Source: Candidatus Woesearchaeota archaeon (GTDB taxonomy: Archaea > Nanobdellota > Nanobdellia > SCGC-AAA011-G17 > CAYFGV01). Taken from it: a DNA stretch of 64,000 bases. How positions within the stretch are numbered: the stretch's first letter is position 1; each line of letters opens with the position of its first letter. Position numbers and translations under genes: made by a program. The stretch covers positions 6,979 through 70,978 of the forward strand of contig CAYVLZ010000005.1 of the NCBI GenBank assembly GCA_964452525.1, written 5' to 3'. Below the pieces are notes generated by a model. It saw only the letters and a list, made by a program, of their open reading frames with translations. It did not search any database and had not been told where the DNA came from. Shown here piece by piece: positions 8,710 through 42,899 of this stretch.

Positions 8710-8711
8710 CA

Positions 8712-18453: not shown

Positions 18454-20274
18454 TTATGGTGGATAGTATTCTACTTCTGCTTTTATCATAAACGATGATT
18501 GTTCTCCAAATATTTCTCTTGGTTTCATATCTGATGTAGAGAAAATGTAATTATTTTCTTTTATTGCTTGAGTATCTCCACCTAGACAGGGTTTCTGATT
18601 CTCTACAAATTGCATTCCAATATAAAATGAACCTTCGTTTATCTGTATGTTATAATCTGATACATCTACTTTTTCCCAATAACCTTCTCCGTAATTTATT
18701 CTTCCTTCTACATCTAGAGAAAGTATTACTTCGCCGTTATCATCAAATATATATGCTTTGAAAGGGGTGTCTGATTTGTGGCAAGGATACCATTCTCTTC
18801 CGTTTAGGAAATATTCTGCTTTTCTTATCTTTGCTGGATATTTTTCTGGATGGAATTTTACTGTAAATCCCATTCCTTCGTCTGCTGTATTTGCGTATTC
18901 AGGATTTCCGTCATCATATCCCAATTCAGCTATCTCTGGTTCTTGTGTTACAAAATATTCTAGGTTAGATTCTGTTTCGTTTATTATTGTATCGTCTTTA
19001 ACTTTTACTTGAGCTTCATGTTGTCCTGCTGGCAGGTTATTTATTGTAATTGATTTTCCTTCAACATATCTCCAATTTTCGTATGGACTATTGCTTACTC
19101 TTACCCAATAAAATAAATCACTTCCGGATGTTGGGCCTTGGCATATTAATGATCCGTCTATAGTTCCATCGGCGTAATAATCTCTATCGAATCCTGACCA
19201 GCTTAAAGTTACAGCGTCTCCGTTTACTTCGGGAGGATTGAGAGTTACTTCCGGGATTTGGCTTGCTCTTAATATGTTGCCTGTGAATGTTCCGGTTATT
19301 GGTGATAAATCTCCTTGTGGAATTTGTTTGTATTTGTCCCAGTTTTCATCTTCGAAATTTATTTCACTTCCCAGAATATTGGATAGTTTTTCTATGTTAC
19401 CTTCTAGGGTTGATATTTGATATATCACATTGCTTGTTCCAGGGATTATTGTGTAGATCTCTGCCATTGCTTTTTCATGATCTTTAATTTGTTGTCCAGT
19501 GAATGTTCCTATGTAATAAAGTTCATTATCTAGCTCACATATCTTGAATCCTTCTCCCAGATTATCTAAGAAATTTATTATTGCTTCTATTGTTTCTGGA
19601 TTTGTTATTTTTTCTAATACATAGTTTTGTAACCCTTTTTTAGTCATTTCTAATATGTGCCCAGAGTTGTGTGTAAAGTAGAATTGGTCTGGAAAATATT
19701 CTTTATTTGGGTCTTCTACGGAAAATACTTTTGCATCTGGTTGACTATAGTATGTTACCTCAAAACCTTCTAATGATTCTCCTGAATTTGTATCTATTGT
19801 TGTAACAAATGTGTCTGAGAAATAGGCATTACCTTGTTCATCGGTAATTCCTGGTTGTATTGGGTCTCCTGGATCTCCCGGACCAGGTATATTTACATTA
19901 AAGGATCTTTTTGATAATTTGGAAAGAGCATTTTGATTGTCTTCTGCTCTTAGATAGAAGGTATTAGTACCATTGCTTAAATTAGTAAACTTGTACTTCG
20001 TTTCTGTAGTCTCTATATCTGGAGTATCATCGTTAATATCTATGTAATATTTTATTATTTCTCCGTCTTCATCGGATCCTTTCCATTCAAATGTAGCATG
20101 ATTTTCTTGTATTGTTCCTGATGGCCCAGAAATTATCTCAACTATCGGAGGTTGGTTTCCTGTATTTGGATCTGTTGGGTTTTTCTTTCCGCAAGAAGAG
20201 TATAGAAGGAATGTAGAAGTTATAATTGGGATTGTAATCTTGCTGGTTTTTCTTACGAGGTCTGTTAAAGACAT
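18454..20274 (-). CDS. Large secreted protein, probably lipoprotein-like (beta-rich, Ig/PKD-like)
   Basis: The ORF track gives a start at 20343, but those first 10 codons overlap the tRNA gene at 20314-20421. The in-frame MSLTDLVRKTSKITIPIITSTFLLYSSCGKK (lipobox-like LYSSC) at 20274 is the more plausible start. Confidence 0.5.
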   Translation of the reverse strand: MSLTDLVRKTSKITIPIITSTFLLYSSCGKKNPTDPNTGNQPPIVEIISGPSGTIQENHATFEWKGSDEDGEIIKYYIDINDDTPDIETTETKYKFTNLSNGTNTFYLRAEDNQNALSKLSKRSFNVNIPGPGDPGDPIQPGITDEQGNAYFSDTFVTTIDTNSGESLEGFEVTYYSQPDAKVFSVEDPNKEYFPDQFYFTHNSGHILEMTKKGLQNYVLEKITNPETIEAIINFLDNLGEGFKICELDNELYYIGTFTGQQIKDHEKAMAEIYTIIPGTSNVIYQISTLEGNIEKLSNILGSEINFEDENWDKYKQIPQGDLSPITGTFTGNILRASQIPEVTLNPPEVNGDAVTLSWSGFDRDYYADGTIDGSLICQGPTSGSDLFYWVRVSNSPYENWRYVEGKSITINNLPAGQHEAQVKVKDDTIINETESNLEYFVTQEPEIAELGYDDGNPEYANTADEGMGFTVKFHPEKYPAKIRKAEYFLNGREWYPCHKSDTPFKAYIFDDNGEVILSLDVEGRINYGEGYWEKVDVSDYNIQINEGSFYIGMQFVENQKPCLGGDTQAIKENNYIFSTSDMKPREIFGEQSSFMIKAEVEYYPP

Positions 20275-20313
20275 ATTTTGGGGAACAGAATTAAAGTTAT
20301 AAATGTTTTGAAA

Positions 20314-20421
20314 TGGAGCCGGTGGGATTTGAACCCACGACACCTAGATGGCTGCTCTTGGAGATCTTCAGTTTCACTTACTTTTGGAGTAGCTAGTGCT
20401 CTCCCCCTGAGCTACGGCTCC
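20314..20421 (-). tRNA. Intron-containing tRNA gene (about 108 nt; roughly 36-nt insertion in the anticodon-arm region). Anticodon uncertain; candidate CCA (Trp). CCA end not encoded
   Basis: Reverse complement GGAGCCG-UA-GCUC-AGGGGGA-GAGC-A-CUAGC...UCUAG-GUGUC-GUGGG-UUCAAAU-CCCAC-CGGCUCC-A. Acceptor, D-arm and T-arm (GUGGG/UUCAAAU/CCCAC) are canonical. The intervening 43 nt contain two CUCCAA copies (a C-U-CCA-A-A loop would be Trp), but I could not fold a clean 5-bp anticodon stem by hand. Confidence 0.7.
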
Positions 20422-23999: not shown

Positions 24000-24359
24000 A
24001 TGAAAAAAGAGATTTTAGTAGCGATTTTAGTTATTACTGCTATATTCATAGTAGGGTGTACATCAGAAGCACAACAGAGTCCGAGGAAAGCAGCAACAAG
24101 TATACAAACATTTACAATAGGGGATGTATTAGAGAGAATACAAAATGCAGAAGTTATAATTGATTATGCTCCCAATTGTACTTATGCTTGTAATCCTAAT
24201 GTTTGTGTTGATGCTTTTATGTTTAATGAGACTCGTATAGTTGAACATGATAACGGTAGGAAAAATGTGTTGGAACCACTGGGATGTGGAGATACTGCTT
24301 TCTATGACAATGGTGATGTAATGAATCGACCTATGATGTGCGAGTGTGCACAAACTTAA
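24000..24359 (+). CDS. Small secreted Cys-rich protein, lipoprotein-like
   Basis: MKKEILVAILVITAIFIVGCTSE (lipobox-like); 8 Cys in 119 aa. Confidence 0.45.
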   Translation: MKKEILVAILVITAIFIVGCTSEAQQSPRKAATSIQTFTIGDVLERIQNAEVIIDYAPNCTYACNPNVCVDAFMFNETRIVEHDNGRKNVLEPLGCGDTAFYDNGDVMNRPMMCECAQT

Positions 24360-24412: not shown

Positions 24413-24919
24413 ATGGTTGAAGATATTAATAAGATAGAGACTATATTGTTTACAACTGGAAAATTTTTGAATCTGGATGAGATATCTCAGTTAACGGGTG
24501 TTGCTAGTATTGGTTATTTGAAGGACTTGTTAGTTGAACTTAAGAATAAGTATGAGTCTTCTAACTCTGCCTTACAGGTTATTAATGAGAATAATAAATG
24601 GAAGCTTGGGATCAAGAAAGAATATCTTTATTTGACTGAGAAATTATTGACAACTGCCGAATTAGATATGCCTGTACAGGAGACTTTGGCTGTAATAGCG
24701 TATAAACAACCCGCCATTCAAGCTGATGTTGTTAATATTAGGGGGAACAAATCTTATGACCATATTAGGAGATTAAAAGAGGAGGGTTTTTTGGTTTCAG
24801 AGAAATTTGGAAGAACTAGAATATTAAAGTTAACCAATAAGTTTTATGATTATTTTGATGTATTGGATGATCAATTAAAAGAACAATTAGTTAATAAATC
24901 AGATGATAAAAAAGATTAA
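24413..24919 (+). CDS. scpB: Segregation and condensation protein B (ScpB)
   Basis: Tandem wH pattern: ETLAVIAYKQPAIQADVVNIRGNKSYDHIRRLKEEGFLV...GRTRILKLTNKFYDYFDV matches ScpB. Confidence 0.7.
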   Translation: MVEDINKIETILFTTGKFLNLDEISQLTGVASIGYLKDLLVELKNKYESSNSALQVINENNKWKLGIKKEYLYLTEKLLTTAELDMPVQETLAVIAYKQPAIQADVVNIRGNKSYDHIRRLKEEGFLVSEKFGRTRILKLTNKFYDYFDVLDDQLKEQLVNKSDDKKD

Positions 24920-26390
24920 AGTTAATTGGCTATTGCTGCTGATATTTGTATTTGTGTTGTCTTTTAGGTTATTTTTTGTTTTTCAGGTAGATGGATTTTC
25001 TCCGGATGCTTATTTTAATATTAAACACATAGATTACGTTTCTGATAATTGGCATATTATGGATCATGACTGGTTGAGTTATGGTGGAAGAGATGTTTTA
25101 TTGACCCCTGGTTTTTATTATTTTATTGCTTTTTTTGATATTTTCTTTTCTTTTGACTTACTTTTGAAGATTCTCCCGGAGATTCTTTTAGCAAGTTTGG
25201 TTATTATAGTTTATCTTATCTCTATGGAAATAACACAAGATAAAAATTCTTCTTTAATTGCCGCTTTAATCTCGGGTTTTGTCCCTTTGCTTGTAGAAAA
25301 AACTTTGAATGCAGTTTCTGTTTATTCTTTGGTCTTGCCCTTGATGTTCTTTATGTTTTATTGTTTTATCAAGTTAGTCGAGGATAGAAGGTATGTTGTT
25401 CCTTTTGTTGTTTCTTCTTTTATTTTACCTTTAATACATCCTAGTGTTTTGATATTTGTTTTTTCCTTAATATTTTACTTTATATTGTTAGTTAGCGAAG
25501 GATTGAGAATGAATACTTTAAGAAAAGAGGTTTTATTATTCTCTTTTTTCCTAATATTATTAATCCAGTTCATTATTTTCAAATCAGCTTTTATCCAATA
25601 TGGTTTAGATATTATCAAATACAATATCCCCTCTAAGATTCTTGAAGATTATTTTAGAAATGTGGATGTCTTTTCTTTAGTGTACGCTGTGGGCATCTTA
25701 CCTTTTGTTTTAGGTACTATTGGAGTATTCTATGGGATTTTTTCTAATAAAAAAAGAAAGATATTTTTGATCACTAGTATTATTCTATCAGTTCTTTTAT
25801 TACTCTTAACCAAACTTGTTGAATTTTATACTGGTTTAATCTTTCTTGGAGTATCTTTAGCAATATTATCTGCATTTACTCTATCTAGATTGTATCGTTA
25901 TATAAGATTAACTAAGTTTTCAGATTATAATAGTTATCTTACTTATTTTATTTTATTTTTGGTTACTTTGTTCTCGATTGTTCCTTCCTTTTCAGTTGCT
26001 AAAGAGGTTACTGAGAATTCCCTTAATTCTGAAGAGTTAGAAGCTTTGGAATGGTTTAGAGATAGTTCCGGAGACAGGGAAGTTGTATTGGCTGACATCT
26101 CTGAAGGTCATTTAATCAATGTTGTTGCCGAAAGGAAAACCGTTATGGACGATTATTTTTTGTTGGTTGATGACGCCTTCATGAGATATAATGATGTTAA
26201 CAAGGTTTTTACTACAGGTAGCGAAGCTGTAGCTCTCGGCATAGTTGATAAATATAATATAAGATATTTCTATATTTCAGAGAGAGTTAAAGAAAGATAT
26301 AATATAGAATCTATTAAATATTTAGAAAATAGGAATTGTTTTGATAGGTTGTGGAATAATGAAGTCCAAATTTATAAAATTGTTTGCTGA
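24903..26390 (+). CDS. Polytopic membrane protein, GT-C-like (PMT/ArnT/AglB-N-like glycosyltransferase fold), paralog A
   Basis: More than 10 predicted TM segments; extracytoplasmic loop after TM1 with DHDWLSYGGRDVLLTPGF, shared with the next gene; C-terminal soluble domain. Confidence 0.45.
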   Translation: MIKKIKVNWLLLLIFVFVLSFRLFFVFQVDGFSPDAYFNIKHIDYVSDNWHIMDHDWLSYGGRDVLLTPGFYYFIAFFDIFFSFDLLLKILPEILLASLVIIVYLISMEITQDKNSSLIAALISGFVPLLVEKTLNAVSVYSLVLPLMFFMFYCFIKLVEDRRYVVPFVVSSFILPLIHPSVLIFVFSLIFYFILLVSEGLRMNTLRKEVLLFSFFLILLIQFIIFKSAFIQYGLDIIKYNIPSKILEDYFRNVDVFSLVYAVGILPFVLGTIGVFYGIFSNKKRKIFLITSIILSVLLLLLTKLVEFYTGLIFLGVSLAILSAFTLSRLYRYIRLTKFSDYNSYLTYFILFLVTLFSIVPSFSVAKEVTENSLNSEELEALEWFRDSSGDREVVLADISEGHLINVVAERKTVMDDYFLLVDDAFMRYNDVNKVFTTGSEAVALGIVDKYNIRYFYISERVKERYNIESIKYLENRNCFDRLWNNEVQIYKIVC

Positions 26391-27771
26391 AAAAAAATTT
26401 TTAATAATATTGTTGGTTATATATGTAGTTATTCTTATCTCTGTACATGTGGTTAGAGGTAATTTCTTGATTGGAGAAGAGGCTTATTTTAATTCTAGGA
26501 TAGCTAATCAATTCTTGGAAACTGGAGAAATTGTCCATGATGATTTTAGTTATGGTGGAAGAAACTTATTGATACCTTTAGCTTTTCCACTTGTTTTGGC
26601 TGGTTTTAGTGCTTTAACCGGGACCACGGTTTTTTTTGCAGCCAAAGCAATTCCTTTTATTTTGGGATTCTTTTCTATTATTTTGTTTTATCTAATTTTG
26701 ACTTTCTTTAAGGTCAATGAGAGAGTTAAATTATTTTCTTTAATATTTTTGTTACTTTCTCCTACTTTTTTATACTTGTTTATTACTTCTACTAAATTCT
26801 CTTCCGTAATCTTTCTTTCTTTTTTGGGTTTTTATTTATTGTTGAAGAATAGAAAAATTTTAGCCGCTATATCTTTTATTCTTATTCCATTACTCAATCT
26901 TCTTTTATCTTATTTCATATTTTTTATTTTATTTTTCTATGTTCTTAAGCAAAGAAAGAACCTGAGATGGTACTTTTTAGTTTTATTTTTAACTTTTAGT
27001 ATTGTTTTTACTTTATATGGCTATGGTGTTGGATATAGACCAGAAGTTCCTTTTAAATCTCTAATTTCTGATTTTGGTGGACAATTCGGTCTGAGTATTT
27101 TTTCCGTTACTCTGTCTTTTATAGGCCTTGGTAATCTTTGGAGAAGAAAATACAGGAATTTTTTAGTTTATTTAGTCTTCGTTGTACTTTTGATTTCTAG
27201 TCTTTATTATGTCCAAAATTTATTTTTATTTAATTTTTTGGTTGTTGTTCTGGCTGCTTATGGTTTAAACTATCTTGTTAATAGGAGTTGGAGTAGTTTT
27301 TTGATAAAAAGATTCACATTGTTTATACTTTTATTGGGCGTATTGTTCTCAGGAATATCTTATATCAATATTTTGGAGGATGTGAGACCGGATCAACAAG
27401 ATATTAAAGTTTTAAGGTATTTAGAAGATGTTACTGGTCCTGGCGATATGGTTTTCTCTCATTACAGTATGGGAAATTGGATTAGTGGAATTGCTCATAG
27501 AAGAAATTTTATGGATTCTAATTTCATTAATGCCCCTTCTTTAGAAAAAAGACTTAGATACTCGGATGTTTTATTTTATTCAAGAGATAGACAGTTGATG
27601 ATTAGTATCTTAGAAGAATATGATATAGATTATATCTGGATAGATTATGAAATGATAAGAGAGTTGGACCTTGATAACAGGGGAGGATTGTTGTTATTGT
27701 TTTTATATGATGATAGATTTGAAAATCTTTATAATAGGGACGGCATAGAGATCTGGAAATTTAATGGATAG
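26341..27771 (+). CDS. Polytopic membrane protein, GT-C-like, paralog B (likely start MKSKF at 26359)
   Basis: Same architecture and DDFSYGGRNLLIPLAF loop motif as paralog A; C-terminal soluble domain. Confidence 0.45.
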   Translation: MIGCGIMKSKFIKLFAEKKFLIILLVIYVVILISVHVVRGNFLIGEEAYFNSRIANQFLETGEIVHDDFSYGGRNLLIPLAFPLVLAGFSALTGTTVFFAAKAIPFILGFFSIILFYLILTFFKVNERVKLFSLIFLLLSPTFLYLFITSTKFSSVIFLSFLGFYLLLKNRKILAAISFILIPLLNLLLSYFIFFILFFYVLKQRKNLRWYFLVLFLTFSIVFTLYGYGVGYRPEVPFKSLISDFGGQFGLSIFSVTLSFIGLGNLWRRKYRNFLVYLVFVVLLISSLYYVQNLFLFNFLVVVLAAYGLNYLVNRSWSSFLIKRFTLFILLLGVLFSGISYINILEDVRPDQQDIKVLRYLEDVTGPGDMVFSHYSMGNWISGIAHRRNFMDSNFINAPSLEKRLRYSDVLFYSRDRQLMISILEEYDIDYIWIDYEMIRELDLDNRGGLLLLFLYDDRFENLYNRDGIEIWKFNG

Positions 27772-27805
27772 AAAAGCTTTAATATATTTTAGCTTTTAGG
27801 ACCTT

Positions 27806-29011
27806 ATGATAGCAGATTTTATAGTATATCCTGTTTATTTTATAACTATTTTTGTTAGTGTATTTTATCTTGTAACTTATTTTCAAAGTAAGAAATATTT
27901 TCATAGCAATATTACAACAAGATTCCCTTTTATTACAATAATAATGCCTGCTTATAATGAAGAACAGGTGATAGCTGATTCTATTACAGGTTTATTGAAT
28001 ATAGATTATCCTAAAGATAAGTTTAAAGTTATTGTAGTTGATGATGGAAGTAAAGATGATACTTATAATCTAGCTAAAGAATTTGAAGGTGGAAATGTTT
28101 TCGTTTACACTAAAAAAAATGAAGGTAAAGCTGCTGCTATGAATTTTGGTATAGATAAGGCTGAAGGAGAGTTTATGGTTACTATTGATGCCGATAGTTA
28201 TATGGATCCTGATTTATTGAAAAAGGCGATACCCTATTTTGATGATCCTGAAGTTGGTTTGGCGGTTCCCACTCTTAAGCCCCATAAACCCAAAAAAATA
28301 ATAGAGAAAATACAGCTTATGGAATATGTTATGAGTAGTTTTAATAGAAAAGTTTTAACTTTCATCGGAAGTATGTTGGCTGCTCCGGCATGTACCATAT
28401 TCCGAGCACAAGTTTTTAAGAAGATAGGCAAGTTTGATGTGGGTAATCTTACAGAGGATTTTGAGATAGCTCTGAGAGCGCAAAAACATAACTATAAACT
28501 AGCACACATTTTAGATTCTACTACGCATACGCATGTTCCAGATACTTTAAAGAAATTATTCAGACAGAGATTGAGATGGGATTACGGTACTTTTTATAAT
28601 CTTAGAAAACATAGACAGTTGTTTAGTTTGAAGTATGGAGATTTGGGTATATTTTATCTTCCTGTCTTTGTTATAGCTATAGGTATTGGAATTCTTATTT
28701 ATAGTCTGTTTACATATGATTGGTTGACAAGATTCATAAGAAGATTTCATTTACTCTCATTAACTAATTTTGATTTGGATTTGAGTGGGCTTAGTCCATG
28801 GGATTTTGTTCCTGGAGCAAGGGTCATACTTGGTGTTATAGTATTGATATTTGCTTTATTGCTTTATAGATATAGTAAAAAATATACTAATGAGAAAAGA
28901 GTTAATTTAATAAGTTTGACCGCATACTTCACTATCTTCAACTTTGGCATGGTTATTATTTGGATAGTAGCGTTATTTTATTTTATCTTGGGTAAGAAAC
29001 CAAAATGGTAA
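27806..29011 (+). CDS. Processive family-2 glycosyltransferase (cellulose/chitin/NodC-type synthase fold)
   Basis: IIMPAYNEE, VIVVDDGSKDDT (D,D), TIDADSYM (DxD), NLTEDFEIALR (TED), FRQRLRWDYG (QxxRW), with N- and C-terminal TM helices. Confidence 0.75.
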   Translation: MIADFIVYPVYFITIFVSVFYLVTYFQSKKYFHSNITTRFPFITIIMPAYNEEQVIADSITGLLNIDYPKDKFKVIVVDDGSKDDTYNLAKEFEGGNVFVYTKKNEGKAAAMNFGIDKAEGEFMVTIDADSYMDPDLLKKAIPYFDDPEVGLAVPTLKPHKPKKIIEKIQLMEYVMSSFNRKVLTFIGSMLAAPACTIFRAQVFKKIGKFDVGNLTEDFEIALRAQKHNYKLAHILDSTTHTHVPDTLKKLFRQRLRWDYGTFYNLRKHRQLFSLKYGDLGIFYLPVFVIAIGIGILIYSLFTYDWLTRFIRRFHLLSLTNFDLDLSGLSPWDFVPGARVILGVIVLIFALLLYRYSKKYTNEKRVNLISLTAYFTIFNFGMVIIWIVALFYFILGKKPKW

Positions 29012-29643
29012 GAACAGTAAGTAAAAGAAAATATGCAATCGTTTATGTATTCACAGCTCTAATCTTTCTTGTTGGTTTAGCAGTGGGATGGCAAATTAGT
29101 AACTATTTGGTTTCGGATGTTAAAGAGAGCAATGATGTTTTGAGAAGTCAACTTATTGGTCTAGATTTAAGAGACGAGTTGTTAAATGAAGATATTTGCG
29201 ATGTTCCCGAGTATATATTGTTTGAAGAGAGACTTAGGATAGCTAGAGAAATAACAGAGTTAGAAGATCGTCTTGGTAAATATGATAAGGAAGTATTAGT
29301 ACAAAAGGAATTTTATCAATTAATTGAGTTGAAAACTTGGTTACTAGTTAAAAATTTAAACGATAATTGCATAGAGAATTATGATTGGATATTGTTTTTT
29401 TATAGTAATAGTAAAGAGAATAATTTAGATAAAATAAGTGAAGATCAAGGTTATGTTTTAGATAATTTTTATTCAAATAACAGAGACGTGGTTGTATTTT
29501 CGTTTGATATTGACACGAGAAATCCTGCTTTGAATACCTTAAAAGAGATATATAACATTTCTGTAGTTCCTAGTTTGGTTATTAATGAAGATTTATACGA
29601 AGGGTACCAGAATTACTACCAGATAGAGCAGGCTATGGGATAA
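29005..29643 (+). CDS. Membrane-anchored hypothetical protein
   Basis: N-terminal TM YAIVYVFTALIFLVGLAVGW; no motif recognised. Confidence 0.35.
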   Translation: MVRTVSKRKYAIVYVFTALIFLVGLAVGWQISNYLVSDVKESNDVLRSQLIGLDLRDELLNEDICDVPEYILFEERLRIAREITELEDRLGKYDKEVLVQKEFYQLIELKTWLLVKNLNDNCIENYDWILFFYSNSKENNLDKISEDQGYVLDNFYSNNRDVVVFSFDIDTRNPALNTLKEIYNISVVPSLVINEDLYEGYQNYYQIEQAMG

Positions 29644-34140: not shown

Positions 34141-34896
34141 ATGAGTAAAAGAGGTCAGGTTACTGCTTTTATATTAGTTGGTATTGTTGTTTTAGCTATA
34201 TTGGGTTTTGTTTTTTATGCTAGAGGTTATTTTTCTAGAATTTCTATTGGTGGAGAATCCGGACAGAGGTATGTTAATTCTCAGTTGGAATCTATTACTG
34301 AATATTTAGATGATTGCGTTAATGAGGTTGTAGAAGATGATTTAAAATTGTTAATAGATAATGCTGGTTTTTTTCAATTGACAAGCTATTATATTATTTA
34401 TGAAGGCGGAGAAGTTAATTATTTGATTTATGAAATAGATGGAGAAAAAGTTAATGGAATGAATTTAAAGAGTTATATTGAAGATCAGATTTCTGATCAT
34501 GTTAAGAATAAATTAGTTAATGAATGTACTTTGAAAGAATATGAAGATCAGTTTACCTTGAATAGAGGAAATATAAATGTAGATACCTTAATTGTTGATG
34601 AAAAGATATTGGTGGTACTAGATTATCCTGTTACAGTTGTCAGGGGAGATGTTAGAGGAGAGATAAGAGAGGTTGAAGTTGATATAGATACAGATTTTGG
34701 AAAGATTTATGATGCGGTTACTGATATTGTAAATGGTGAAATGGAGAATGGAGACTTTGATAAAAATAGTTACGAATTAAGTCATAGAGATATTGTTATA
34801 AGAAAAGATAACCTTTATTTATCTGATGCTGTTTATAGTATTACTACTACCGAAGATGGAGAAGATGAGTTTGTGATATTCGCGGTTAGAAGATGA
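34141..34896 (+). CDS. Class III signal peptide (prepilin-like) protein 1
   Basis: MSKRGQVTAFILVGIVVLAILGFVFYA: K-R-G|Q followed by a 20-residue hydrophobic helix. Confidence 0.55.
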   Translation: MSKRGQVTAFILVGIVVLAILGFVFYARGYFSRISIGGESGQRYVNSQLESITEYLDDCVNEVVEDDLKLLIDNAGFFQLTSYYIIYEGGEVNYLIYEIDGEKVNGMNLKSYIEDQISDHVKNKLVNECTLKEYEDQFTLNRGNINVDTLIVDEKILVVLDYPVTVVRGDVRGEIREVEVDIDTDFGKIYDAVTDIVNGEMENGDFDKNSYELSHRDIVIRKDNLYLSDAVYSITTTEDGEDEFVIFAVRR

Positions 34897-36605
34897 AAAA
34901 AAAGAGTTTGATATTAATTTTTGTGTTTTTTGTTAGTTTGTTAACTATTTCTGTTGATAAGGTAAATGCGGCTAGCGTTTGTTGTGAAAAAAGTAACGGA
35001 GATTACTGTGTATTTACTGATATTGGTGCATGTGATACTGCTTATAGTAGCAATCTTCAGAGAAATTATGGTTTTTCACAGTTTTCTTGCTCATCTGTTA
35101 ATTATTGCCAACAAGTTTGTTGTATAGATACTGGTGGAGTTTGTTCCGAGGGTATGACTGAAGTACAGTGTTTAGATCAGGGGGGAACTGTTAGAAGTGA
35201 AGGTTGTGACAATTATTTAGAATGTCAGGTTGGAAGTTGTGTTATTGGTGGGCAATGTAGCACCGGAGTAACGAATAGGGAATGTAGATTAAATGCTGAT
35301 AAATTTAATGTTACTTATATTTTTGATCCCAATATTAATGATTTGGATGAATGTAGGGATAAGTATTCTACAGAAGAGGGTTGCTGTATTACTGAAAACG
35401 GTTGTGTAAGAACAACTTCTGCCGTATGTGAAGGTGATTTTAAAGCTGGAAAATTGTGTAGTAATACGGATTTCGTTGGGTTATGTACTAATCAAAAAGA
35501 GTTCGAGAGAAGATGTGGACCTGATGGTGAAGATGTTTATTGGTACGATTCTGAAGGGCAGTTAGAGAATATTGTCGGCGTTCCTTATGATGGAAATATT
35601 AGGACGAAGCAACAGTCTATGGGGGTTGTTGGTGATTGTGATTATGTTGCTGGGAATACTTGTGGGATAAATGAAAGGGGTGATTATTCTTGTGTAACTA
35701 TAGATTGTGTATCGGGAAATAAATTTAGCATTCCAAGGCCAATTCCAAGTACTGGAGAGGTGTTGAATATAGAAGTTGATATAAGTAATGATCTTTTAGG
35801 TGGAAAAAATATTAGGAAAAATGGAGAAAGCTGGTGTTTTATGAGTAGTTATAATTGGGATCAAACAAGTATGGATAGAGGTTACTATCTTGGTGACCAG
35901 TCTTTGGATAGTACTGGATTGGTTCATCAAAAATATTCGGCTGGATCTAGGCATTATATTATGAGTTGTAATCTTGGAAGAGTTGAGCCGGAATTTTGTA
36001 GTGCTTTTAGAGAAACGGTTTGTAAAGAAAACACGGTTTCAGGACAAACTTCTGCCAAATGTGTTGAGAATGAGGCTGATAAATGTAGAAGTATAACAAG
36101 TGATAGTGTTTGTAAGAATGAAGATAATCGGGAGTTTTGTGTTTTGAATACGGGAGGTATTAATGAATGTTGGCCTAGACCAGAATATGCCCTTGGTTTT
36201 GAGTTTTGGTTAGATTCTAATGTTAATAGTCAAAATGAAAGACAATGTCAAAGTAAATGTGGCAAGGGCGTAGATGTTTGTGATGATGATGAGTGTTGGA
36301 GTTTGGGAGATTGTACTATTGAAGATAGGGGCATGTTTGGTGGAGGTGGAAGTGCTTTGGCTGGTTGTGCTGTTGGAGCTGGTATCGGAGGTTTTGGAGC
36401 CCATATTCCTGTGGTTGGCGGACAGTTTGAATCTGGATTATTGAGATTGAGAGAGATATTTGGGTTGGTTCCAGATTTGGTAGGCCCTCCAGCACCCTCT
36501 TCTCCTCTTAGAGAAGATGTAGAAATCACTTGTAATACTGATGATGATTGTAATGAAGGAGAGAAATGTTTGTATCAGTTTGGAGGATGTGTTAAAGTAA
36601 GTTAG
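34893..36605 (+). CDS. Large cysteine-rich secreted protein (about 60 Cys; Gly-rich hydrophobic segment near the C-terminus)
   Basis: Sec-type signal MKKKSLILIFVFFVSLLTISVDKVNA; CC/CxxC-dense throughout; GGGGSALAGCAVGAGIGGFGAHIPVVGG Gly-zipper-like segment. Confidence 0.55.
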   Translation: MKKKSLILIFVFFVSLLTISVDKVNAASVCCEKSNGDYCVFTDIGACDTAYSSNLQRNYGFSQFSCSSVNYCQQVCCIDTGGVCSEGMTEVQCLDQGGTVRSEGCDNYLECQVGSCVIGGQCSTGVTNRECRLNADKFNVTYIFDPNINDLDECRDKYSTEEGCCITENGCVRTTSAVCEGDFKAGKLCSNTDFVGLCTNQKEFERRCGPDGEDVYWYDSEGQLENIVGVPYDGNIRTKQQSMGVVGDCDYVAGNTCGINERGDYSCVTIDCVSGNKFSIPRPIPSTGEVLNIEVDISNDLLGGKNIRKNGESWCFMSSYNWDQTSMDRGYYLGDQSLDSTGLVHQKYSAGSRHYIMSCNLGRVEPEFCSAFRETVCKENTVSGQTSAKCVENEADKCRSITSDSVCKNEDNREFCVLNTGGINECWPRPEYALGFEFWLDSNVNSQNERQCQSKCGKGVDVCDDDECWSLGDCTIEDRGMFGGGGSALAGCAVGAGIGGFGAHIPVVGGQFESGLLRLREIFGLVPDLVGPPAPSSPLREDVEITCNTDDDCNEGEKCLYQFGGCVKVS

Positions 36606-36607
36606 AA

Positions 36608-38227
36608 ATGAATAAATCAAAGAAGACTTGGATGAAGCATGTTGTTGTTTTGGGAGTAGTTATGCTTTTGTTGATTCCTTCTGCTTTTGCTATCTGGAAT
36701 TATGTTATTGGATGTGGCGTTGGTGCTGTAGTTGGTCTTTTTGTCGGGGGCATTGGAGTAAATTGTTATGATTATCAATGGACTCCTGATATGGATAAGA
36801 GTAAAGATAATTATCAGTGTACTTTATGTAATAATTTTAATGAGTTTGGTTTAGATGAAGATTTGACTTCTTATTTTGAGCCTTGTACTGAGTATAGATG
36901 TAAGAGTATAGGTAAGTTATGTGAGTTTAAAGAGTTTGAAGAGGAGGAAGGAGCTGGTATCTGTGTAAGAAAAGATTGTAGTAAAGAATTTGATGCACCT
37001 AAAATTACCAATTGTGAGGTCAGGGATCCCGATACTACAAATAAATATAATGTAGCACAGACTGAAAATGGTTGTAAAATTCTAGATCCTATACCAGAGT
37101 TTGATGGTGCTGCTATTATGTTAAATATAAGCGAGGCTGGCCAGTGTAGGTTTAGTACTGTTCCTGATTTTACAGAAACTAATAGTGTTTGGTTTGGCAG
37201 TCCTAATTTTGATACAGCACATTTCTTTTTACTAAGTGTTTATGATGCCAATGAAACGGTTATTCAAGAATGTAATTCTGGAGATTGTAATTTATATGTT
37301 AAATGTGGTGATGTTTGTGATAATACAATGGGTAGTAGTTATGCTATTAGTTTCAATATAAAAGAAGGTCCTGATTTAGAATCTCCCAGGATTGTTGATA
37401 CTTTAGTTGAGAGTGGTGCTATGGTACCTGCTGGTATTGAAAATATAGAATTTAGTATGAGTGTTTTTGATCATAGCAATATTGAAAGTTGTAAATGGGC
37501 AACTGATGAATTTGAAGAATATGAAGATATTAAGAATACCTTTGATTGTAAGAATGATTTTGGCAATGTAGATGTTGTAGCTAATTTTCTTGAAGAAGGT
37601 ATATTTTGTGAAACTACTTTAACTGGATTAGAGGATGACGAAGATAATATATTTTACTTTAGTTGTAGAGACGATTCTGAACAGAAAAATACCTTAAAAC
37701 CTTATGTAGAGTTTATATTGAAAGGAACTACTCCCTTAAATATTACTAATTCTCATATGCCAGAAGGCACCCTTTATAGTTTGAATTATACCGTTACTGC
37801 TGTAACTAATAGGGATGCTAATTGTTATTATAAGATCAATAATAGAGACAGGGAAGAGTTTAATAATACTGGATTGACTTCACATAGCGCTGAGGTTAAA
37901 TTTGATCCAGGACAGGTTAATTTAGAAATTTTATGTCATGATATTGCTGGAAATGAAGATAGTGTTACAGGTACATTTAGAGCGGAAGAAGATACTAAAC
38001 CACCCACGTTGGTAAGGTTGTATTCTGATGCAAGTTATTTAACAGTTGTTTTAGATGAAGAAGCTAAATGTGAGTATTCTGATGAGCAATTTATATTTGA
38101 AGATGGTACGGTTATGGTTCCTGCAGATTATAGTAAAGAGCATAGAGCAGCAATAGGACAGGATGTTTATTACATCAAATGCAGGGATGTTTATGAGAAT
38201 GAGTTAAGCTTCACAGTTTATCCTTAA
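36608..38227 (+). CDS. Large cysteine-rich secreted/membrane-anchored protein with N-terminal glycine-zipper TM
   Basis: HVVVLGVVMLLLIPSAFAIWNYVIGCGVGAVVGLFVGGIGV N-terminus; about 35 Cys; acidic. Confidence 0.5.
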   Translation: MNKSKKTWMKHVVVLGVVMLLLIPSAFAIWNYVIGCGVGAVVGLFVGGIGVNCYDYQWTPDMDKSKDNYQCTLCNNFNEFGLDEDLTSYFEPCTEYRCKSIGKLCEFKEFEEEEGAGICVRKDCSKEFDAPKITNCEVRDPDTTNKYNVAQTENGCKILDPIPEFDGAAIMLNISEAGQCRFSTVPDFTETNSVWFGSPNFDTAHFFLLSVYDANETVIQECNSGDCNLYVKCGDVCDNTMGSSYAISFNIKEGPDLESPRIVDTLVESGAMVPAGIENIEFSMSVFDHSNIESCKWATDEFEEYEDIKNTFDCKNDFGNVDVVANFLEEGIFCETTLTGLEDDEDNIFYFSCRDDSEQKNTLKPYVEFILKGTTPLNITNSHMPEGTLYSLNYTVTAVTNRDANCYYKINNRDREEFNNTGLTSHSAEVKFDPGQVNLEILCHDIAGNEDSVTGTFRAEEDTKPPTLVRLYSDASYLTVVLDEEAKCEYSDEQFIFEDGTVMVPADYSKEHRAAIGQDVYYIKCRDVYENELSFTVYP

Positions 38228-38229
38228 AG

Positions 38230-38709
38230 ATGAAAAAAGCACAGATATTTTCAACGCCATTATTATATATTTTTATTTTAATCGTTATGGCTTTTGTTAT
38301 ATTTTTTGGAGCTAAAGCAATTAAGAACACTACTGAAATTAGTAAAACTGTAGATTATGAAACTTTTATCGACGATGTTCAGGAAAGATTTGATAGTGTT
38401 TCTATTTTGGATTATGGTAGTACAGTTTCTTTAAGAGAGGTATATGTTCCTACGGATGTGAAAGAGGTGTGTTTTGTAGATTCAGAAGAGAGGATTAATA
38501 TTGGTAATGTTAAGGATGAAAAATTGAAAAAAATTATTGATTCTGGTGTTGATGCAGACTTATTTTTTGTTAATGGAAGGGTAACCTATAATAATGTGGG
38601 TAGAGTTTTTGAACTAGAGGAAAATCCTTTATGCGATTCTACTTTTGATGATAGGTTGGATGTTAAGTTGATAAATCAAGGAAATGTTATAAGGGTAGAG
38701 AAAGCTTAA
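38230..38709 (+). CDS. Class III signal peptide (prepilin-like) protein 2
   Basis: MKKAQIFSTPLLYIFILIVMAFVIFFGAKA. Confidence 0.5.
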   Translation: MKKAQIFSTPLLYIFILIVMAFVIFFGAKAIKNTTEISKTVDYETFIDDVQERFDSVSILDYGSTVSLREVYVPTDVKEVCFVDSEERINIGNVKDEKLKKIIDSGVDADLFFVNGRVTYNNVGRVFELEENPLCDSTFDDRLDVKLINQGNVIRVEKA

Positions 38710-38734
38710 TATATCAATAAAAAGAAATATTCTT

Positions 38735-39610
38735 ATGAGAAAAGGGCAGGTGCAGTTTAATTGGATTTTTATTTTGGTTGCTGGAGCTATTCTTTTGGCT
38801 TTCTTTGCTGGTTTTATAGTTAAGTACACACAATTACAAGACGATAAGTTAAATGTTCAGGTTGGTATGGGCCTAGATGAGATAATAAGTAATTTAAGAG
38901 GAACTACCCTGTATAAGAATTTGAGTACAGAAGTTCCTTTTAATGTTAATTTTGGTTGTGATGGTTTTTCTATTGGTGAATATCAACAAGATATTGGAAC
39001 GAAAGTTGTTTTTGCTTCTAAGAATATTAGTAGTGATAATGTTTTTACTTGGACTAGAGAATGGAGAGGACCTTTTAGGATTGATAATATGATATATTTT
39101 GTGAATGGAGATTCTAAATATTATTTATCTAACGATCCTTTAAACTTATTACAGGATATGTCAGGACATATCAGAGAAAATTTCGTTGGAATGAATAATG
39201 CAGATATTTTTGTTGTTTTTTCTTTAACAGATTTTAATCATTTTAAACAGAGAGGTAATACTGTTTATATTGAGCCTAGGGAAATCGGAGAAGTTAGGTT
39301 TTATAGAGAAGGTAGAGAGGAAAGAAGTTATCATCTGGGAAAAGAATTTATTTATGGTGCTATTTTTTCAGCTAATTATGATAATTATTATTGTAATGTT
39401 CTAAAATTAGAGGAGAAATATGATAATTTAAGACAAATTTATGCTAAGAAGGCTATGTATTTGGACAGTATTTATCCTGAATGTGATTATAGTACTGTTG
39501 TTTCAGATCTTAATATTGTTTTTGATAGTAATAAATTTGATGTTGTCAGCAATAATTTAGCAAGTGCTAATAGCATTTTATGGGAAAAAGGTTGCGAGGT
39601 GGTATTTTGA
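38735..39610 (+). CDS. Class III signal peptide (prepilin-like) protein 3
   Basis: MRKGQVQFNWIFILVAGAILLAFFAGFIV. Confidence 0.55.
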   Translation: MRKGQVQFNWIFILVAGAILLAFFAGFIVKYTQLQDDKLNVQVGMGLDEIISNLRGTTLYKNLSTEVPFNVNFGCDGFSIGEYQQDIGTKVVFASKNISSDNVFTWTREWRGPFRIDNMIYFVNGDSKYYLSNDPLNLLQDMSGHIRENFVGMNNADIFVVFSLTDFNHFKQRGNTVYIEPREIGEVRFYREGREERSYHLGKEFIYGAIFSANYDNYYCNVLKLEEKYDNLRQIYAKKAMYLDSIYPECDYSTVVSDLNIVFDSNKFDVVSNNLASANSILWEKGCEVVF

Positions 39611-40056
39611 AGAAAGGGCAATTGCAGATACAGGAAACAATTATTGTTATTTTTGTGTTTACTGTTATATTTGTGATTGGTTTAATGTTTTTTTATAGAT
39701 ATACTGTAAATAGTATAGAGCAGGATATAGAGAGACATAAGGAGGCTAATTTTAGACAGTTAATTGGTTATATTCCCAGTATGCCTGAACTTAAATGTAG
39801 TAGATTTTATGTTGAAGAGGAATGTATTGATGTGGCTAAGATGAATGCTTTTAAGTTTATCTCTGGAGATTATGATTTCGGAGAGATAAAACTTAATGTA
39901 AAAGAAGTATATTTAACAGGTAACGAATGGCAGATTTATGACGGTTCTCCTATGGACTATGAAAATGTTTTAGTTATATCTAGTCCTATTAGTTTATATT
40001 ATCCTGATACAGGTAAATATGGTGTGGGGGTTTTAGAGATATCTAAATATGATTAA
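39607..40056 (+). CDS. Class III signal peptide (prepilin-like) protein 4 (probable TTG start overlapping the previous stop)
   Basis: The ORF track gives ATG at 39580 inside the upstream gene. The in-frame TTG at 39607 gives (M)KKGQLQIQETIIVIFVFTVIFVIGLMFFY, a canonical KG|Q prepilin N-terminus. Confidence 0.5.
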   Translation: MKKGQLQIQETIIVIFVFTVIFVIGLMFFYRYTVNSIEQDIERHKEANFRQLIGYIPSMPELKCSRFYVEEECIDVAKMNAFKFISGDYDFGEIKLNVKEVYLTGNEWQIYDGSPMDYENVLVISSPISLYYPDTGKYGVGVLEISKYD

Positions 40057-40586: not shown

Positions 40587-40691
40587 ATAATCTATGATTT
40601 AGAACCATATTTAGACGACAGAATCTCAATAATAGTCACTACTAGGAACGTGGATGCTCAAAATATAATAAAATTCGGAGGTGTAAACCAC

Positions 40692-42899
40692 ATGAAAAAG
40701 ATGATTAAAAGTATTGCGGCTCTGGGAGCTGGAGTTGCTATGCTTGGAGCAACATTAGGTGGAGCTTTAGCAGTGAATGATTTAGGAAATTTACCTTCTC
40801 CATTTGTACAAGATAGTGCATTGGTTGATACTGCTATAGTTCTAGGAGAAACAGGTAACGACGCAGCAGCAAGAGACGATATAAATAATTACCTTGGCGG
40901 TTTAGCAACTGCTGGAGGTGTGACTGTTACTGGTGGAGAGGATAAGGATATTCCTCTTAACAACCATTTAGCTAATCCTACATATGGTTGGACGAGTCCA
41001 GTACAGGATCAAGATGTAGATGCTCTACAAGATACAGTGATTGATGTAGATATAGGAGATGTTTCTAATACTTACGATGTACATGATCAGGTGTACTTTG
41101 GAACAGGTATTAGAGTTGAAACTGGTTTGACTATAGGTACTCCAGATGACGATTTTGGTAGTGAACCATTTTTAAAGGTAAACAAAGATTCTGTAAAGTA
41201 TTCTTATGTATTTGATGACTCCATAAAACAAGATAACTATTTTGCGAATACAAGTACAGACGATTCGATAATAATAAGTTTCTTGGGTAATGAACTGGAA
41301 ATTATCGGTTCTGATGCCGCTAATAAATTTACTGCACTGGTTGGTGAAAAAGTTACACTGCAAGTAGATGAAACTTATACGGATCCTGATACTGGTGCTG
41401 TAGTTACATTGGTTGATGTAGCCAGCGGAGGAGCTGTATTTGTAGATGTTGATGGAGAGACGGATACAATCTCAAGTGGACAGTCAAAGCAAATAGGCGG
41501 TACTAAGATTAAAAATCAGAACCAGTTCTATACTGCTGATAGAGAAGATAGAAGAGCAACCTTGGTTATTGGTTCTGATACAACTAAGACGTATACTAGT
41601 GGTGACTATTATATTGGGTCTTCATCAAGTCCTGTTTGTGATGAAACAGATACTAGTGACCCTGACTGTTGGAAATGGGAAATTTCTGGATTGAACACTG
41701 CAACACCTACAATAAACATAACATTTGCAACTACTTTGGATAGTTCGGATGAAGTTATAAGAAAAGGTGACGCATTGAGATTACCAGATGACTTCATTGT
41801 TGTATCTTTGACTGATTATGTTATAAATGATTGGTTAGAGTATGAGTTTGAAGAATGTACAGAGGAACTACACAATAGTACTGGTGGAACTGGTATTGTT
41901 GCTGGTGAAGGGCCTGCAGGAACAACAAGTGAAAAGGCATTGTGCGTTAAAGCACTTGGTGGTACGGATGATGGATTTAAAGTTGGAACAACAGAGACAG
42001 ACGATGTTTTAATATTTGCTAATAACACTTGGGAAGCTGGAACTGGTGATGCTAGAGGTCCTTGGGTATATTATAAGGATCCTAATGATGTTGGTTCTGG
42101 TTGGAAATACAGAGCAAATGATACAGTAGAGCTATTCAACCACAAAGCAGGTAGTGTACTGTACAACCATTCCTTGACGAAAGTTACCATGCAATTTGAT
42201 GACACTAAATTGACAGCTGTAGTGACTACTGATAATGTTACGGATGAAGCTGGTTCCATTGGAGTGGGTTTCCAAATAGATGGTACTGCTGCTAATGACA
42301 TTAACTTTACAGCGAATGTAACGGGTAATGGTATTGAATGGTTGGGTGCTGTTGATGGAGATGCTAAGTCTAAGGATCTTACAGCAAACAATACAGAGAT
42401 AGGTACTTGGGAAGATGATACCATGACATATGATGGTATAAAAATATTTAACCCAGACTCTTATGGAGACTCTGATAAATGGAGAGTAGCTATCCCTGGT
42501 GATGTTGGAACTGACTTTAGAATGACTGTAACTGTATCTGGCGAGTCTACAACAGGAACTACTTCAGCGGCTTTGATGACTGCAGATGATGTAAGTACAC
42601 CATCTGACTACAACTTAATCCTTGTAGGTGGACCATGTGTCAATAGCTTAACTGCTTCATTCTTAGGAGTAGCAGCTAACTCTTGTGGTGATTCCTCTGG
42701 ATTTAACCCAGGAGAAGGTTATGTTGAGCTTATGGACAATGGCAATAAAGTAGCGATGATTGTAGCAGGATGGGAAGTAGACGACACTAGAAGAGCTGCT
42801 AAGGTTGTAGCTAACCCAGGTAGTTTTGACTTGGCAGGCAAGTCTTCAGTAACTGTAACAGGAACATCAACAAGCTTGAACGACATAACAGTTGTTTAA
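40692..42899 (+). CDS. Candidate S-layer (major surface) glycoprotein
   Basis: Signal peptide MKKMIKSIAALGAGVAMLGATLGGALA; 735 aa, acidic, Thr/Gly/Asp/Val-rich with few Cys; multiple sequons (NTST, NHSL, NVTD, NFTA, NVTG, NTEI); long 5' leader and T-rich terminator. Confidence 0.55.
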   Translation: MKKMIKSIAALGAGVAMLGATLGGALAVNDLGNLPSPFVQDSALVDTAIVLGETGNDAAARDDINNYLGGLATAGGVTVTGGEDKDIPLNNHLANPTYGWTSPVQDQDVDALQDTVIDVDIGDVSNTYDVHDQVYFGTGIRVETGLTIGTPDDDFGSEPFLKVNKDSVKYSYVFDDSIKQDNYFANTSTDDSIIISFLGNELEIIGSDAANKFTALVGEKVTLQVDETYTDPDTGAVVTLVDVASGGAVFVDVDGETDTISSGQSKQIGGTKIKNQNQFYTADREDRRATLVIGSDTTKTYTSGDYYIGSSSSPVCDETDTSDPDCWKWEISGLNTATPTINITFATTLDSSDEVIRKGDALRLPDDFIVVSLTDYVINDWLEYEFEECTEELHNSTGGTGIVAGEGPAGTTSEKALCVKALGGTDDGFKVGTTETDDVLIFANNTWEAGTGDARGPWVYYKDPNDVGSGWKYRANDTVELFNHKAGSVLYNHSLTKVTMQFDDTKLTAVVTTDNVTDEAGSIGVGFQIDGTAANDINFTANVTGNGIEWLGAVDGDAKSKDLTANNTEIGTWEDDTMTYDGIKIFNPDSYGDSDKWRVAIPGDVGTDFRMTVTVSGESTTGTTSAALMTADDVSTPSDYNLILVGGPCVNSLTASFLGVAANSCGDSSGFNPGEGYVELMDNGNKVAMIVAGWEVDDTRRAAKVVANPGSFDLAGKSSVTVTGTSTSLNDITVV

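Follow-up and report, generated by a model that had tools for sequence, protein, structure and literature searches.

Miniaturised STT3/AglB-like paralogs beside a candidate synthase-type glycosyltransferase and a thioredoxin-fold protein in a Woesearchaeales-type archaeon

The oligosaccharyltransferases (OSTs) AglB, STT3 and PglB (CAZy family GT66) are enzymes with the GT-C fold, in which the WWDYG motif reads and binds the Ser or Thr at position +2 of the N-x-S/T sequon, the second DxD/E motif in external loop 2 (EL2) and the glutamate of the TIxE motif in EL5 bind the metal, and an arginine holds the lipid phosphate. Other GT-C enzymes, such as DPY19, PMT, ArnT and AglS, are metal-independent, take the sugar from a polyprenyl-monophosphate donor and use an acceptor other than a sequon, and the PMT (Pmt1-Pmt2) and Emb (EmbA-EmbB) enzymes work as paralog heterodimers. 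In the DPANN archaea, whose genomes are very small and whose way of life is one of attachment to other cells, the building of the cell surface is hardly known. Here, we analysed a stretch of 64,000 nucleotides (the window) from a Candidatus Woesearchaeota archaeon (contig CAYVLZ010000005.1) and, within it, four neighbouring genes which we call P1, P2, GT2 and P4:

24903-26390, + strand: P1, 495 aa, very probably a miniaturised GT-C protein of the STT3/AglB family (open reading frame (ORF), family profiles, AlphaFold (AF2) model)
26341-27771, + strand: P2, 476 aa counted from a TTG start, paralog of P1 (ORF, family profiles, AF2 model)
27806-29011, + strand: GT2, 401 aa, candidate membrane glycosyltransferase of the PgaC/IcaA-BcsA-NodC-hyaluronan synthase type
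29005-29643, + strand: P4, 212 aa, N-terminal membrane anchor and thioredoxin fold (profile of 27 orthologs)

P1 and P2 are, with high confidence, divergent and miniaturised homologs within the STT3/AglB oligosaccharyltransferase family. What appears to be new here is a lineage-wide, unannotated family of minimal STT3 paralog pairs that seem to have shed the OST motifs, and that stand beside a synthase-type GT2 and a thioredoxin-like protein.

The initial annotation of this DNA had described the first three genes as two paralogous polytopic proteins of GT-C type followed by a processive synthase, and all three ORFs are present on the + strand at the positions listed above. For P2, the ATG at 26359 is a likelier start than the listed TTG at 26341; P2 begins 32-50 nt before P1 ends, and the same overlap occurs in three related loci (L001, L003 and L004). 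In BLASTP, P1 and P2 align over the C-terminal domain alone (27% identity, E 1e-10). Comparison of the family profiles, built from 43 P1 and 36 P2 homologs, extends the paralogy to the full length of the proteins (hhalign, 442 columns, probability 100%, E 7.9e-52, about 20% identity). The shared extracytoplasmic loop motif is found behind the first transmembrane (TM) helix of both, as DWLSYGGRDVLLTP in P1 (residues 56-69) and DDFSYGGRNLLIP in P2 (residues 67-79). Both proteins are polytopic and end in a soluble domain of about 120 residues, as judged from the secondary structure of the models (DSSP) and from hydropathy. However, DSSP strings and alignment gaps give about 11 TM helices in total, compared with 13 in AglB, and the original count of more than ten helices beyond the first was slightly generous.

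No Pfam or NCBIfam model matched P1 or P2 above threshold. Below threshold, the P1 of the window reached DUF6541 (E 0.003) and AglB_core-like (E 0.11), while its P2 matched nothing in Pfam at all; members of the two families touched several models of the GT-C clan (DUF6541, PMT_2, DUF2079 and AglB_core-like), the PMT_2 and PMT matches being below threshold and limited to a minority of members, and 1 of the 43 P1 homologs matched Pfam STT3. Searches of PDB sequences with the single P1 and P2 sequences gave nothing useful, and STT3 and AglB were reached by family profiles only. The P1 profile found STT3 (8i9p, E 6.7e-8; human STT3A) and the C-terminal domain of AglB-S2 (3vu0, E 7.5e-6), and the P2 profile found AglB-S2 (3vu0, E 1.8e-7), AglB-S1 (3vgp) and the full-length AglB-L of Archaeoglobus fulgidus (AfAglB-L, 3waj, E 8e-4). 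As a reference for canonical AglB we used an alignment of 78 sequences from metagenome loci related to the AglB of the window. Against this reference, global hhalign matched both families over their full length (P1 99.7%, E 4e-26; P2 99.8%, E 2e-29); against the single AglB of the window the family profiles gave partial alignments with 87-88% probability.

The structural comparison points the same way. The AF2 models have a pLDDT of 91.1 and a pTM of 0.89 for P1, and 88.4 and 0.87 for P2. Foldseek against the PDB placed yeast and human STT3 first for P1 (E 5e-14, TMq 0.75), followed by AglB and PglB, and it placed STT3 and AglB on top for P2, with TMq values to STT3, AglB and PglB structures of 0.61-0.76. 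For both models the Foldseek probability was 1.0 for STT3, AglB, PglB, DPY19, AftA, ArnT, ALG and PMT, and less than 0.1 for transporters. The earlier call of a GT-C fold was thus correct but too general, and the models do not resemble a transporter family, the match that had been named as refuting it. The PMT/ArnT/DUF2079-type identity put up for checking did not hold, as the top profile and structure matches are STT3, AglB and PglB, and we rejected transporter, Wzy/WaaL-type and PMT/ArnT membership of P1 and P2 on the same ground. After the OSTs, the models come structurally closest to DPY19 and ArnT; P1 and P2 differ from these two, and from PMT and AglS, in having no sequence-level membership in their families and in an external domain of the AglB type rather than of the MIR or DPY19 type. 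Current pipelines label P1 and P2 as 'hypothetical', 'GT39' or 'DUF2079', and a better label would be STT3/AglB-like, flagged as lacking WWDYG.

The P1 family is a large, stripped-down derivative of the universal oligosaccharyltransferase that falls outside the Pfam and NCBIfam models. In an exhaustive profile search, with sequences clustered at 50% identity, the family comprised 672 clusters under a limit of E<=1e-30, rising to 1370 when the limit was relaxed to E<=1e-10, and the top 150 clusters were all full-length matches of about 440-540 aa. Among species-representative genomes we found 42 P1 loci, all of them in metagenome-assembled genomes (MAGs) of Woesearchaeota or Nanoarchaeia. Some family members carry other labels, 'Bacteroidota bacterium' (P0036) or 'uncultured Methanosarcinales' (L034, L038, L041); the genes around these members resemble those of Woesearchaeales, which makes faulty binning the probable cause of the labels. 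Literature searches for AglB paralogs devoid of WWDYG, or for synthase-type GT2 proteins, in DPANN archaea returned nothing relevant.

Residue-level comparison was made against STT3 and against the canonical AglB of the same window:

58356-60980, + strand: canonical AglB, 874 aa, Pfam STT3 (E 6.8e-18) and STT3-PglB_core, all OST motifs intact ('LDPF', 'SDKE', 'TVAE' and 'WWDYG', the last within 'AHWWDYGYW')

With the AglB/STT3/PglB enzymes, and especially with the AglB-S type of A. fulgidus, P1 and P2 share homology over the full length and the same GT-C fold. In EL1, P1 'SPD-AYFNIK' and P2 'GEEAYFNSR' align with 'EFDPWFNFR' of STT3 and 'ALDPFVFLR' of AglB; the acid at the catalytic position, followed by Y/W-F/Y-x-x-R, is therefore kept (D35 in P1 and E47 in P2, equivalent to D47 of STT3 and D65 of the window AglB). 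The second EL1 acid is kept too (D56 in P1 and D67 in P2, equivalent to D86 of AglB). It belongs to a second shared motif, D-x-x-x-[WS]-Y-x-x-G-R, whose 'SYGGR' part, located in the first external loop, has its counterpart in 'D-x-x-x-W-Y-P-L-G-R' ('WYPLGR') of STT3 and 'D86-x-x-R-Y-Y-P-x-G' of AglB. A K/P landmark in TM2 and a P landmark in TM3 are also shared, and the external domain resembles the minimal one of AfAglB-S2 (3vu0), including the 'ER....D' stretch after the WWDYG position, which is kept in both P1 and P2.

The differences concern the parts of the enzyme that recognise the sequon, the metal and the lipid phosphate. P1 and P2 have about 480-495 aa, compared with at least 590 aa in the known enzymes. 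The AglB residues W588-W589-D590-Y591-G592 align with D398-I-S-E-G402 of P1 and H374-Y-S-x-G378 of P2 ('HYSMG' in the window), so that WWDYG is replaced by 'x-hydrophobic-[ED]-E-G' in the P1 family ('DISEG' in the window) and by 'HYSxG' in the P2 family, and neither tryptophan is conserved across P1 (n=189) or P2 (n=36). The second acidic motif is gone, D179-K-E181 of AglB ('SDKE'; 'SYDNE' in STT3) becoming S139-V-Y141 (SxY) in P1 and T/N-x-x in P2. The TIxE/SVSE loop of EL5 is deleted in P1: TVAE368 of AglB and about two TM helices fall in P1 gaps, the gap at TVAE being about 75 residues long, and the loop equivalent to EL5 has no conserved acid. The lipid-phosphate arginine is not conserved, R498 of AglB aligning with a variable P1 column. 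The mapping of residues in the middle of the TM region comes from a low-identity profile alignment.

One could still regard P1 and P2 as genuine additional AglB oligosaccharyltransferases with a very divergent sequon pocket. Some archaea have multiple AglB paralogs, three of them in A. fulgidus (PMC3703281), and the full-length homology to AglB, the C-terminal domain closest to AfAglB-S2, and an E or D in the column of the WWD aspartate in about 59% of P1 homologs (Ser in the window copy) would all suit such enzymes. However, P1 and P2 have neither of the WWDxG tryptophans, nor the DxD/E motif, nor the lipid-phosphate arginine, and P1 has no TIxE loop either, although such motifs are conserved at 95% or more across the 78 canonical AglB proteins of DPANN (D65, D86, TVAE, R498 and HWWDYGYW; the acids of SDKE fall below 95%), and WWDXG is given as common to AglB, PglB and Stt3 (PMC11407970). 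P1 and P2 also form an adjacent paralog pair that is additional to canonical AglB, and since a complete, WWDYG-bearing AglB is encoded in the same window, they are no replacement for it. We therefore consider this explanation extremely improbable, and P1 and P2 would not be N-oligosaccharyltransferases.

The loss of so many motifs raises the question of whether the proteins are active at all. P1 and/or P2 could be inactive STT3-derived pseudoenzymes, serving as a scaffold, as a lipid-carrier or glycan-binding platform, or as an anchor for the synthase, the S-layer or AglB. This would agree with the disappearance of four catalytic or substrate motifs of the OSTs, and also with the behaviour of P2, in which 8-11 of 36 orthologs (about a quarter) have a deletion of the 'SYGGR' stretch of EL1, the EL1 acid is less fixed and wanders, and evolution is faster than in P1 (24-36% identity to the window copy, compared with 27-47% for P1). 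On the other hand, across 189 homologs P1 conserves D56 (99.5%), Y37 (97%), R41 (94%), K89 (94%), N136 (92%), E209 (98%), N241 (94%), G402 (97%), D416 (99%) and the pair C479/C495 (99.5%), with D or E at D35 in 78%; the near-invariant polar residues D56, R41, K89, N136, S139 and N241 lie in the external loops that form the active site of GT-C enzymes. Across 36 homologs P2 conserves G246 (100%), S243 and D244 (89%), S373 (94%) and D392 (92%), and it has family-specific motifs of its own, 'ISDFG..G...F' and 'FSHYSxGFWI'. As read from these alignments, such near-invariance indicates purifying selection on a new motif set in P1 and P2, and not decay. The acid at the catalytic position is present in the P1 and the P2 of the window, and the metal-independent DPY19 is among their structural matches. 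Metal-independent GT-C enzymes that have the EL1 acid alone are known, for example DPY19, PMT and ALG6. All of this speaks against inactivity, which we find very unlikely.

P1 and P2 resemble DPY19, PMT, ArnT and the AglS of Haloferax volcanii in keeping the EL1 acid while apparently having no metal site of the DxD/E-plus-Glu type. We propose that P1 and P2 are ancient AglB paralogs cut down to about 11 TM helices and a minimal AglB-S-like external domain. They may form a translationally coupled, heteromeric GT-C enzyme in which P1 would be catalytic and P2 auxiliary and faster-evolving, as their obligate pairing, overlapping ORFs and unequal conservation suggest; such an arrangement would parallel the paralog heterodimers of the PMT and Emb enzymes. 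As suggested by the apparent loss of the metal and pyrophosphate ligands and the sequon pocket, and by the retained EL1 acids and new invariant polar residues, the enzyme would act without metal on the outer face of the membrane, with a polyprenyl-phosphate-linked (monophosphate) sugar as the donor and an acceptor that is not a sequon. If P1 and P2 are active, the STT3 scaffold has been re-used for a non-sequon acceptor, and the pair would define a minimal GT-C enzyme.

The third gene, GT2, has the features of processive synthases (PgaC/IcaA, BcsA, NodC, class I hyaluronan synthase and chitin synthase), namely the D, DxD, QxxEY, TED and QxxRW motifs, a length of 401 aa, and a GT-A domain flanked by one N-terminal and three C-terminal TM segments. 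The complete processive-type signature claimed for it could be located in full (D79-D80-G81, D128-A129-D130, T216-E217-D218 and Q254-R-L-R-W258) and is invariant or nearly so in 44 homologs, where D128, D130, Q170-x-x-E173-Y174, E217, D218, Q254, R255, R257 and W258 do not vary. The protein matches Pfam GT2 (E 3e-35) and, best in NCBIfam, PgaC_IcaA (TIGR03937) over residues 6-398 of 407 (E 3.9e-43); its score of 148 bits is, however, far below the cut-off of 422, as it is below every equivalog cut-off. XrtG-associated glycosyltransferase, NodC, MftF and CelA follow in the ranking, and the AglJ and ArnC types come far lower. All 44 homologs give this same ranking with PgaC_IcaA as the best family, and the strongest of them (E 3e-58) is still under the cut-off. 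The GT2 family is widespread in DPANN (Nano-, Woese-, Pace-, Aenigm- and Micrarchaeota) and also occurs in Altiarchaeota.

Profile comparison with BcsA covers 15-323 (E 1.7e-29) and runs through 'TEDAETAL', 'QRGRWATG', the interface helix and the TM helices that follow; with hyaluronan synthases it covers 43-363. The matches to dolichyl-phosphate mannose synthase (DPMS), GtrB, ArnC and AglJ types (5mlz, 5ekp, ArnC) score much lower and are restricted to the N-terminal ~110 residues (about 40-150). A grouping with dolichyl-phosphate (Dol-P)-mannose/glucose synthases, which had been named as an outcome that would overturn the processive assignment, is thus not seen, and given these N-terminal matches and the invariant QRxRW we rejected a Dol-P-sugar synthase identity for GT2. 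As far as motifs and profiles can tell, GT2 is a candidate synthase of the PgaC/BcsA class and not a Dol-P-sugar synthase.

It might instead be non-processive and lipid-directed, comparable to the AglC-like crenarchaeal PcManGT, ceramide glucosyltransferase or MGlcDG synthase, and build a lipid-linked or polyprenyl-phosphate-linked sugar for transfer by P1/P2, in a relay like those of ArnC/ArnT, GtrB/GtrC and AglD/AglS. A GT2 beside a GT-C is the classic arrangement of such relays, and the loss of metal and pyrophosphate ligands from P1 and P2 suits a monophosphate-sugar donor. The GT2 profile matches PcManGT strongly (6yv7, 38-254, E 3.7e-33), and it matches over 3-261 (E 2e-12) ceramide glucosyltransferase, an enzyme with (Q/R)xxRW and a similar size and topology. 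However, the PcManGT alignment ends before QxxRW and shows 'DD' in place of TED, whereas the BcsA alignment takes in TED and QxxRW as well as the interface helix and the TM helices; PgaC_IcaA is the best full-length family for 44 of 44 homologs, and the Dol-P and undecaprenyl-phosphate (Und-P) sugar synthases are matched in the N-terminal part only. The mannosyltransferase function proposed for PcManGT is itself reported as lacking experimental confirmation (PMC8993221). On balance, a lipid-directed GT2 seems distinctly unlikely to us. We favour a synthase that would polymerise a nucleotide sugar into a beta-linked glycan and pass the product through a channel formed by its own TM helices. The initial annotation had gone further, to a homopolymer exported as exopolysaccharide or pseudo-cell wall, which is at most a conjecture here, as is any action of P1/P2 on it.

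GT2 differs from the known processive synthases in its company as well. PgaD/IcaD was not found beside it, and neither BcsB nor PilZ nor a cyclic di-GMP module accompanies it; the conserved downstream partner is the thioredoxin-fold protein P4. The start of P4 overlaps the GT2 stop by 7 nt, as it does in L001 and L003. The window copy alone has no Pfam family, but a profile built from 27 orthologs finds thioredoxins (3ul3, E 4.6e-7) and places the CxxC column of the family on WCxxC, and Pfam Thioredoxin and TraF match 3-10 members. CxxC is present in 15 of the 27 orthologs and is replaced by Ser/Glu variants in the others; because the window copy reads 'ISED', it is probably redox-inactive. 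C65, C122, Q148 and P189 are invariant, C65/C122 being a second cysteine pair and P189 the presumed cis-proline. We infer that the domain faces outward, since the N-terminus, which anchors P4 in the membrane by a TM helix, is positively charged, and P4 may assist GT2 as an external thioredoxin-fold subunit.

A membrane-anchored, extracytoplasmic thioredoxin fold beside STT3-family genes recalls Ost3/Ost6 (TUSC3/MagT1), by analogy only. P4 consists of a single N-terminal TM helix, a helical linker and the thioredoxin domain, while Ost3/Ost6 have a signal peptide, the thioredoxin domain and four TM helices. P4 is translationally coupled to GT2 rather than to P1/P2, it accompanies GT2 also where P1/P2 are absent, and the window copy has no CxxC. 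The likeness seen is one of fold and gene position. In a contig of Aenigmarchaeota (L005:3675-8884), a GT2 of the same type lies between two P4-like thioredoxin-fold genes, with no P1/P2 homologs; the opposite strand carries two more GT2 genes, and the gene of an S_layer_C protein is close by.

Gene order links the four genes in most Woesearchaeales genomes. Relatives at about 40% identity preserve the order ValRS-aRF1-ScpB-P1-P2-GT2-P4-HTH-RpoL-AMMECR1-...-PCNA (ValRS, valyl-tRNA synthetase; HTH, helix-turn-helix). Gene order could be judged in 36 of the 42 genome loci, those that are long enough. P1 and P2 are adjacent in all 36, GT2 lies directly downstream on the same strand in 28, and P4 was detected in most; 5 further loci carry a GT2 on the other strand at a distance of 1-4 kb, and in one of these (L013) P4 is inverted along with it. 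Nine loci keep the four-gene block intact behind different upstream housekeeping genes (L004, L030, L033, L034, L037-39, L041, L042). Because the block persists where the ValRS-aRF1-ScpB context is lost, these loci argue for a functional module rather than mere backbone synteny. The block as a whole, with P1 and P2 devoid of the OST signature motifs, suggests an undescribed cell-surface sugar pathway.

The picture that we prefer is that of an ancient, lineage-specific AglB paralog pair, acting as a metal-independent GT-C enzyme in a surface-glycan module with GT2 and P4; as a whole we see it as evenly poised between right and wrong, and its mechanistic part is more tentative still. In Woesearchaeales the four genes would then form a core cell-surface glycan module, in which the GT-C pair may decorate, extend or attach the GT2 product, or a surface protein, outside the cell. 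If the four genes do cooperate, this would be a new type of archaeal surface-glycan pathway, maybe one relevant to host attachment.

Several points weigh against this picture. The loss of the EL5 glutamate appears firm for P1 alone, since D244 of P2 (89% D/E), in 'ISDFG', sits in the EL5-equivalent loop, where the alignment is of low confidence. The EL1 acid is D or E in merely 78% of each family, and the acid that many P1 homologs keep at the WWD aspartate position, mentioned above, belongs here as well. The P1-P2 heterodimer is one that we infer, and the donor, acceptor and product assigned to P1, P2 and GT2 are deduced from sequence. What links the P1-P2 pair to the GT2-P4 pair is conserved gene order only, and synteny in the lineage extends over the entire ValRS-PCNA region, so that part of the adjacency is simply genome backbone. 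In 3 of the 36 loci (L011, L019, L045) there is no nearby GT2, and in the Aenigmarchaeota contig GT2-P4 stands without P1/P2. The transcription signals, finally, seem to divide the block between P2 and GT2:

27772-27805, + strand: spacer between P2 and GT2, with the TATA-box-like TTTAATATA about 26 nt upstream of the GT2 ATG

In L004, L003 and L001, the similar TATA-like elements TTTATAAA, TTTAAAAA and TTTAATAG precede the GT2 start by 27-37 nt, and the spacing between P2 and GT2 is 34-67 nt across the compared loci, while ORFs overlap inside P1/P2 and inside GT2/P4. GT2-P4 may therefore have a separate promoter, although TATA-like evidence is weak at 30% GC. The overlaps within each pair, together with the element between P2 and GT2, suggest two transcription units, [ScpB-P1-P2] and [GT2-P4]. 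A scan for sigma-70 promoters and terminators, which has no meaning in an archaeon, found about as many as chance would give.

The points on gene order and transcription would be expected if GT2-P4 and P1-P2 were two independent modules in unrelated processes, kept as neighbours by a frozen Woesearchaeales gene order: the ValRS...PCNA stretch is collinear even in distant relatives, either pair can occur without the other beside it, and both the TATA-like element and the ORF overlaps follow the border between them. Yet the four-gene block holds in the nine loci with an altered upstream context, and the five non-collinear loci still have GT2 within 1-4 kb. We thus look upon two unrelated modules as rather unlikely, though as the most credible of the alternatives.

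The surface-glycan module can be taken one step further, to a second STT3-derived glycosylation machine that stands beside AglB. Here the P1-P2 heterodimer would have switched from the Asn sequon to the GT2 polymer, or to Ser, Thr or other residues of surface proteins, with a thioredoxin-fold subunit echoing the association of STT3 with Ost3/6. We hold this extension to be improbable. Were it true, P1 and P2 would be the first neofunctionalised oligosaccharyltransferase paralogs coupled to a synthase-dependent archaeal glycan pathway, and the system would be a core envelope or attachment system of these episymbionts.

The GC content of the window is about 32%, and the encoded proteins include an archaeal housekeeping set (ValRS, aRF1, ScpB, RpoL, a TFS-like protein, PCNA and a tRNA-splicing endonuclease). 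Homologs of the studied genes come nearly all from MAGs labelled Woesearchaeota, Nanoarchaeota or Nanoarchaeia, which makes the source of this DNA a DPANN archaeon of the Woesearchaeales type. Among the ORFs scanned in the window, none was recognised as a gene of nucleotide-sugar biosynthesis. The same organism had been said to encode both an S-layer and AglB; along with the AglB gene given above, the window indeed contains:

40650-42899: S-layer-like protein

The AglB stop codon is overlapped by 4 nt by the start of another gene on the + strand (60977-62488), which encodes a polytopic membrane protein of 503 aa whose C-terminal part is soluble. It has no Pfam match, and we rejected it as a third paralog of the P1/P2 type (hhalign probability 1%); the product may be an uncharacterised partner associated with AglB.

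Upstream of P1, the ScpB gene (24413-24919) overlaps the P1 start at 24903 by 17 nt. In most related genomes, too, ScpB directly precedes P1, and it is curious that a gene for chromosome segregation should be paired so stably with genes for membrane proteins resembling glycosyltransferases. Before it, a small Cys-rich protein of 119 aa with a lipoprotein-like N-terminus ('FIVGCTSE') and no family match is encoded at 24000-24359 (+ strand), and in L003 a 284-aa gene with no Pfam match takes its place. Two long same-strand runs of ORFs of up to 570 aa, at 1408-9920 and 34141-40056, have no Pfam family at E<=1e-4.

An AMP-salvage set is encoded on the - strand (49449-50942, 54730-55992 and 55986-57431), consisting of an AMP-phosphorylase-like protein, a form-III RuBisCO, and an IF-2B-family domain (ribose-1,5-bisphosphate isomerase-like) fused to a HAD hydrolase domain. 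At 20314-20421 on the - strand, Rfam recognises a tRNA over 108 nt (51.7 bits) that was missed by ARAGORN, pointing to an archaeal tRNA with an intron. The ORF at 18454-20343 is listed with a GTG start that reaches into this tRNA, and its true start is probably further downstream.

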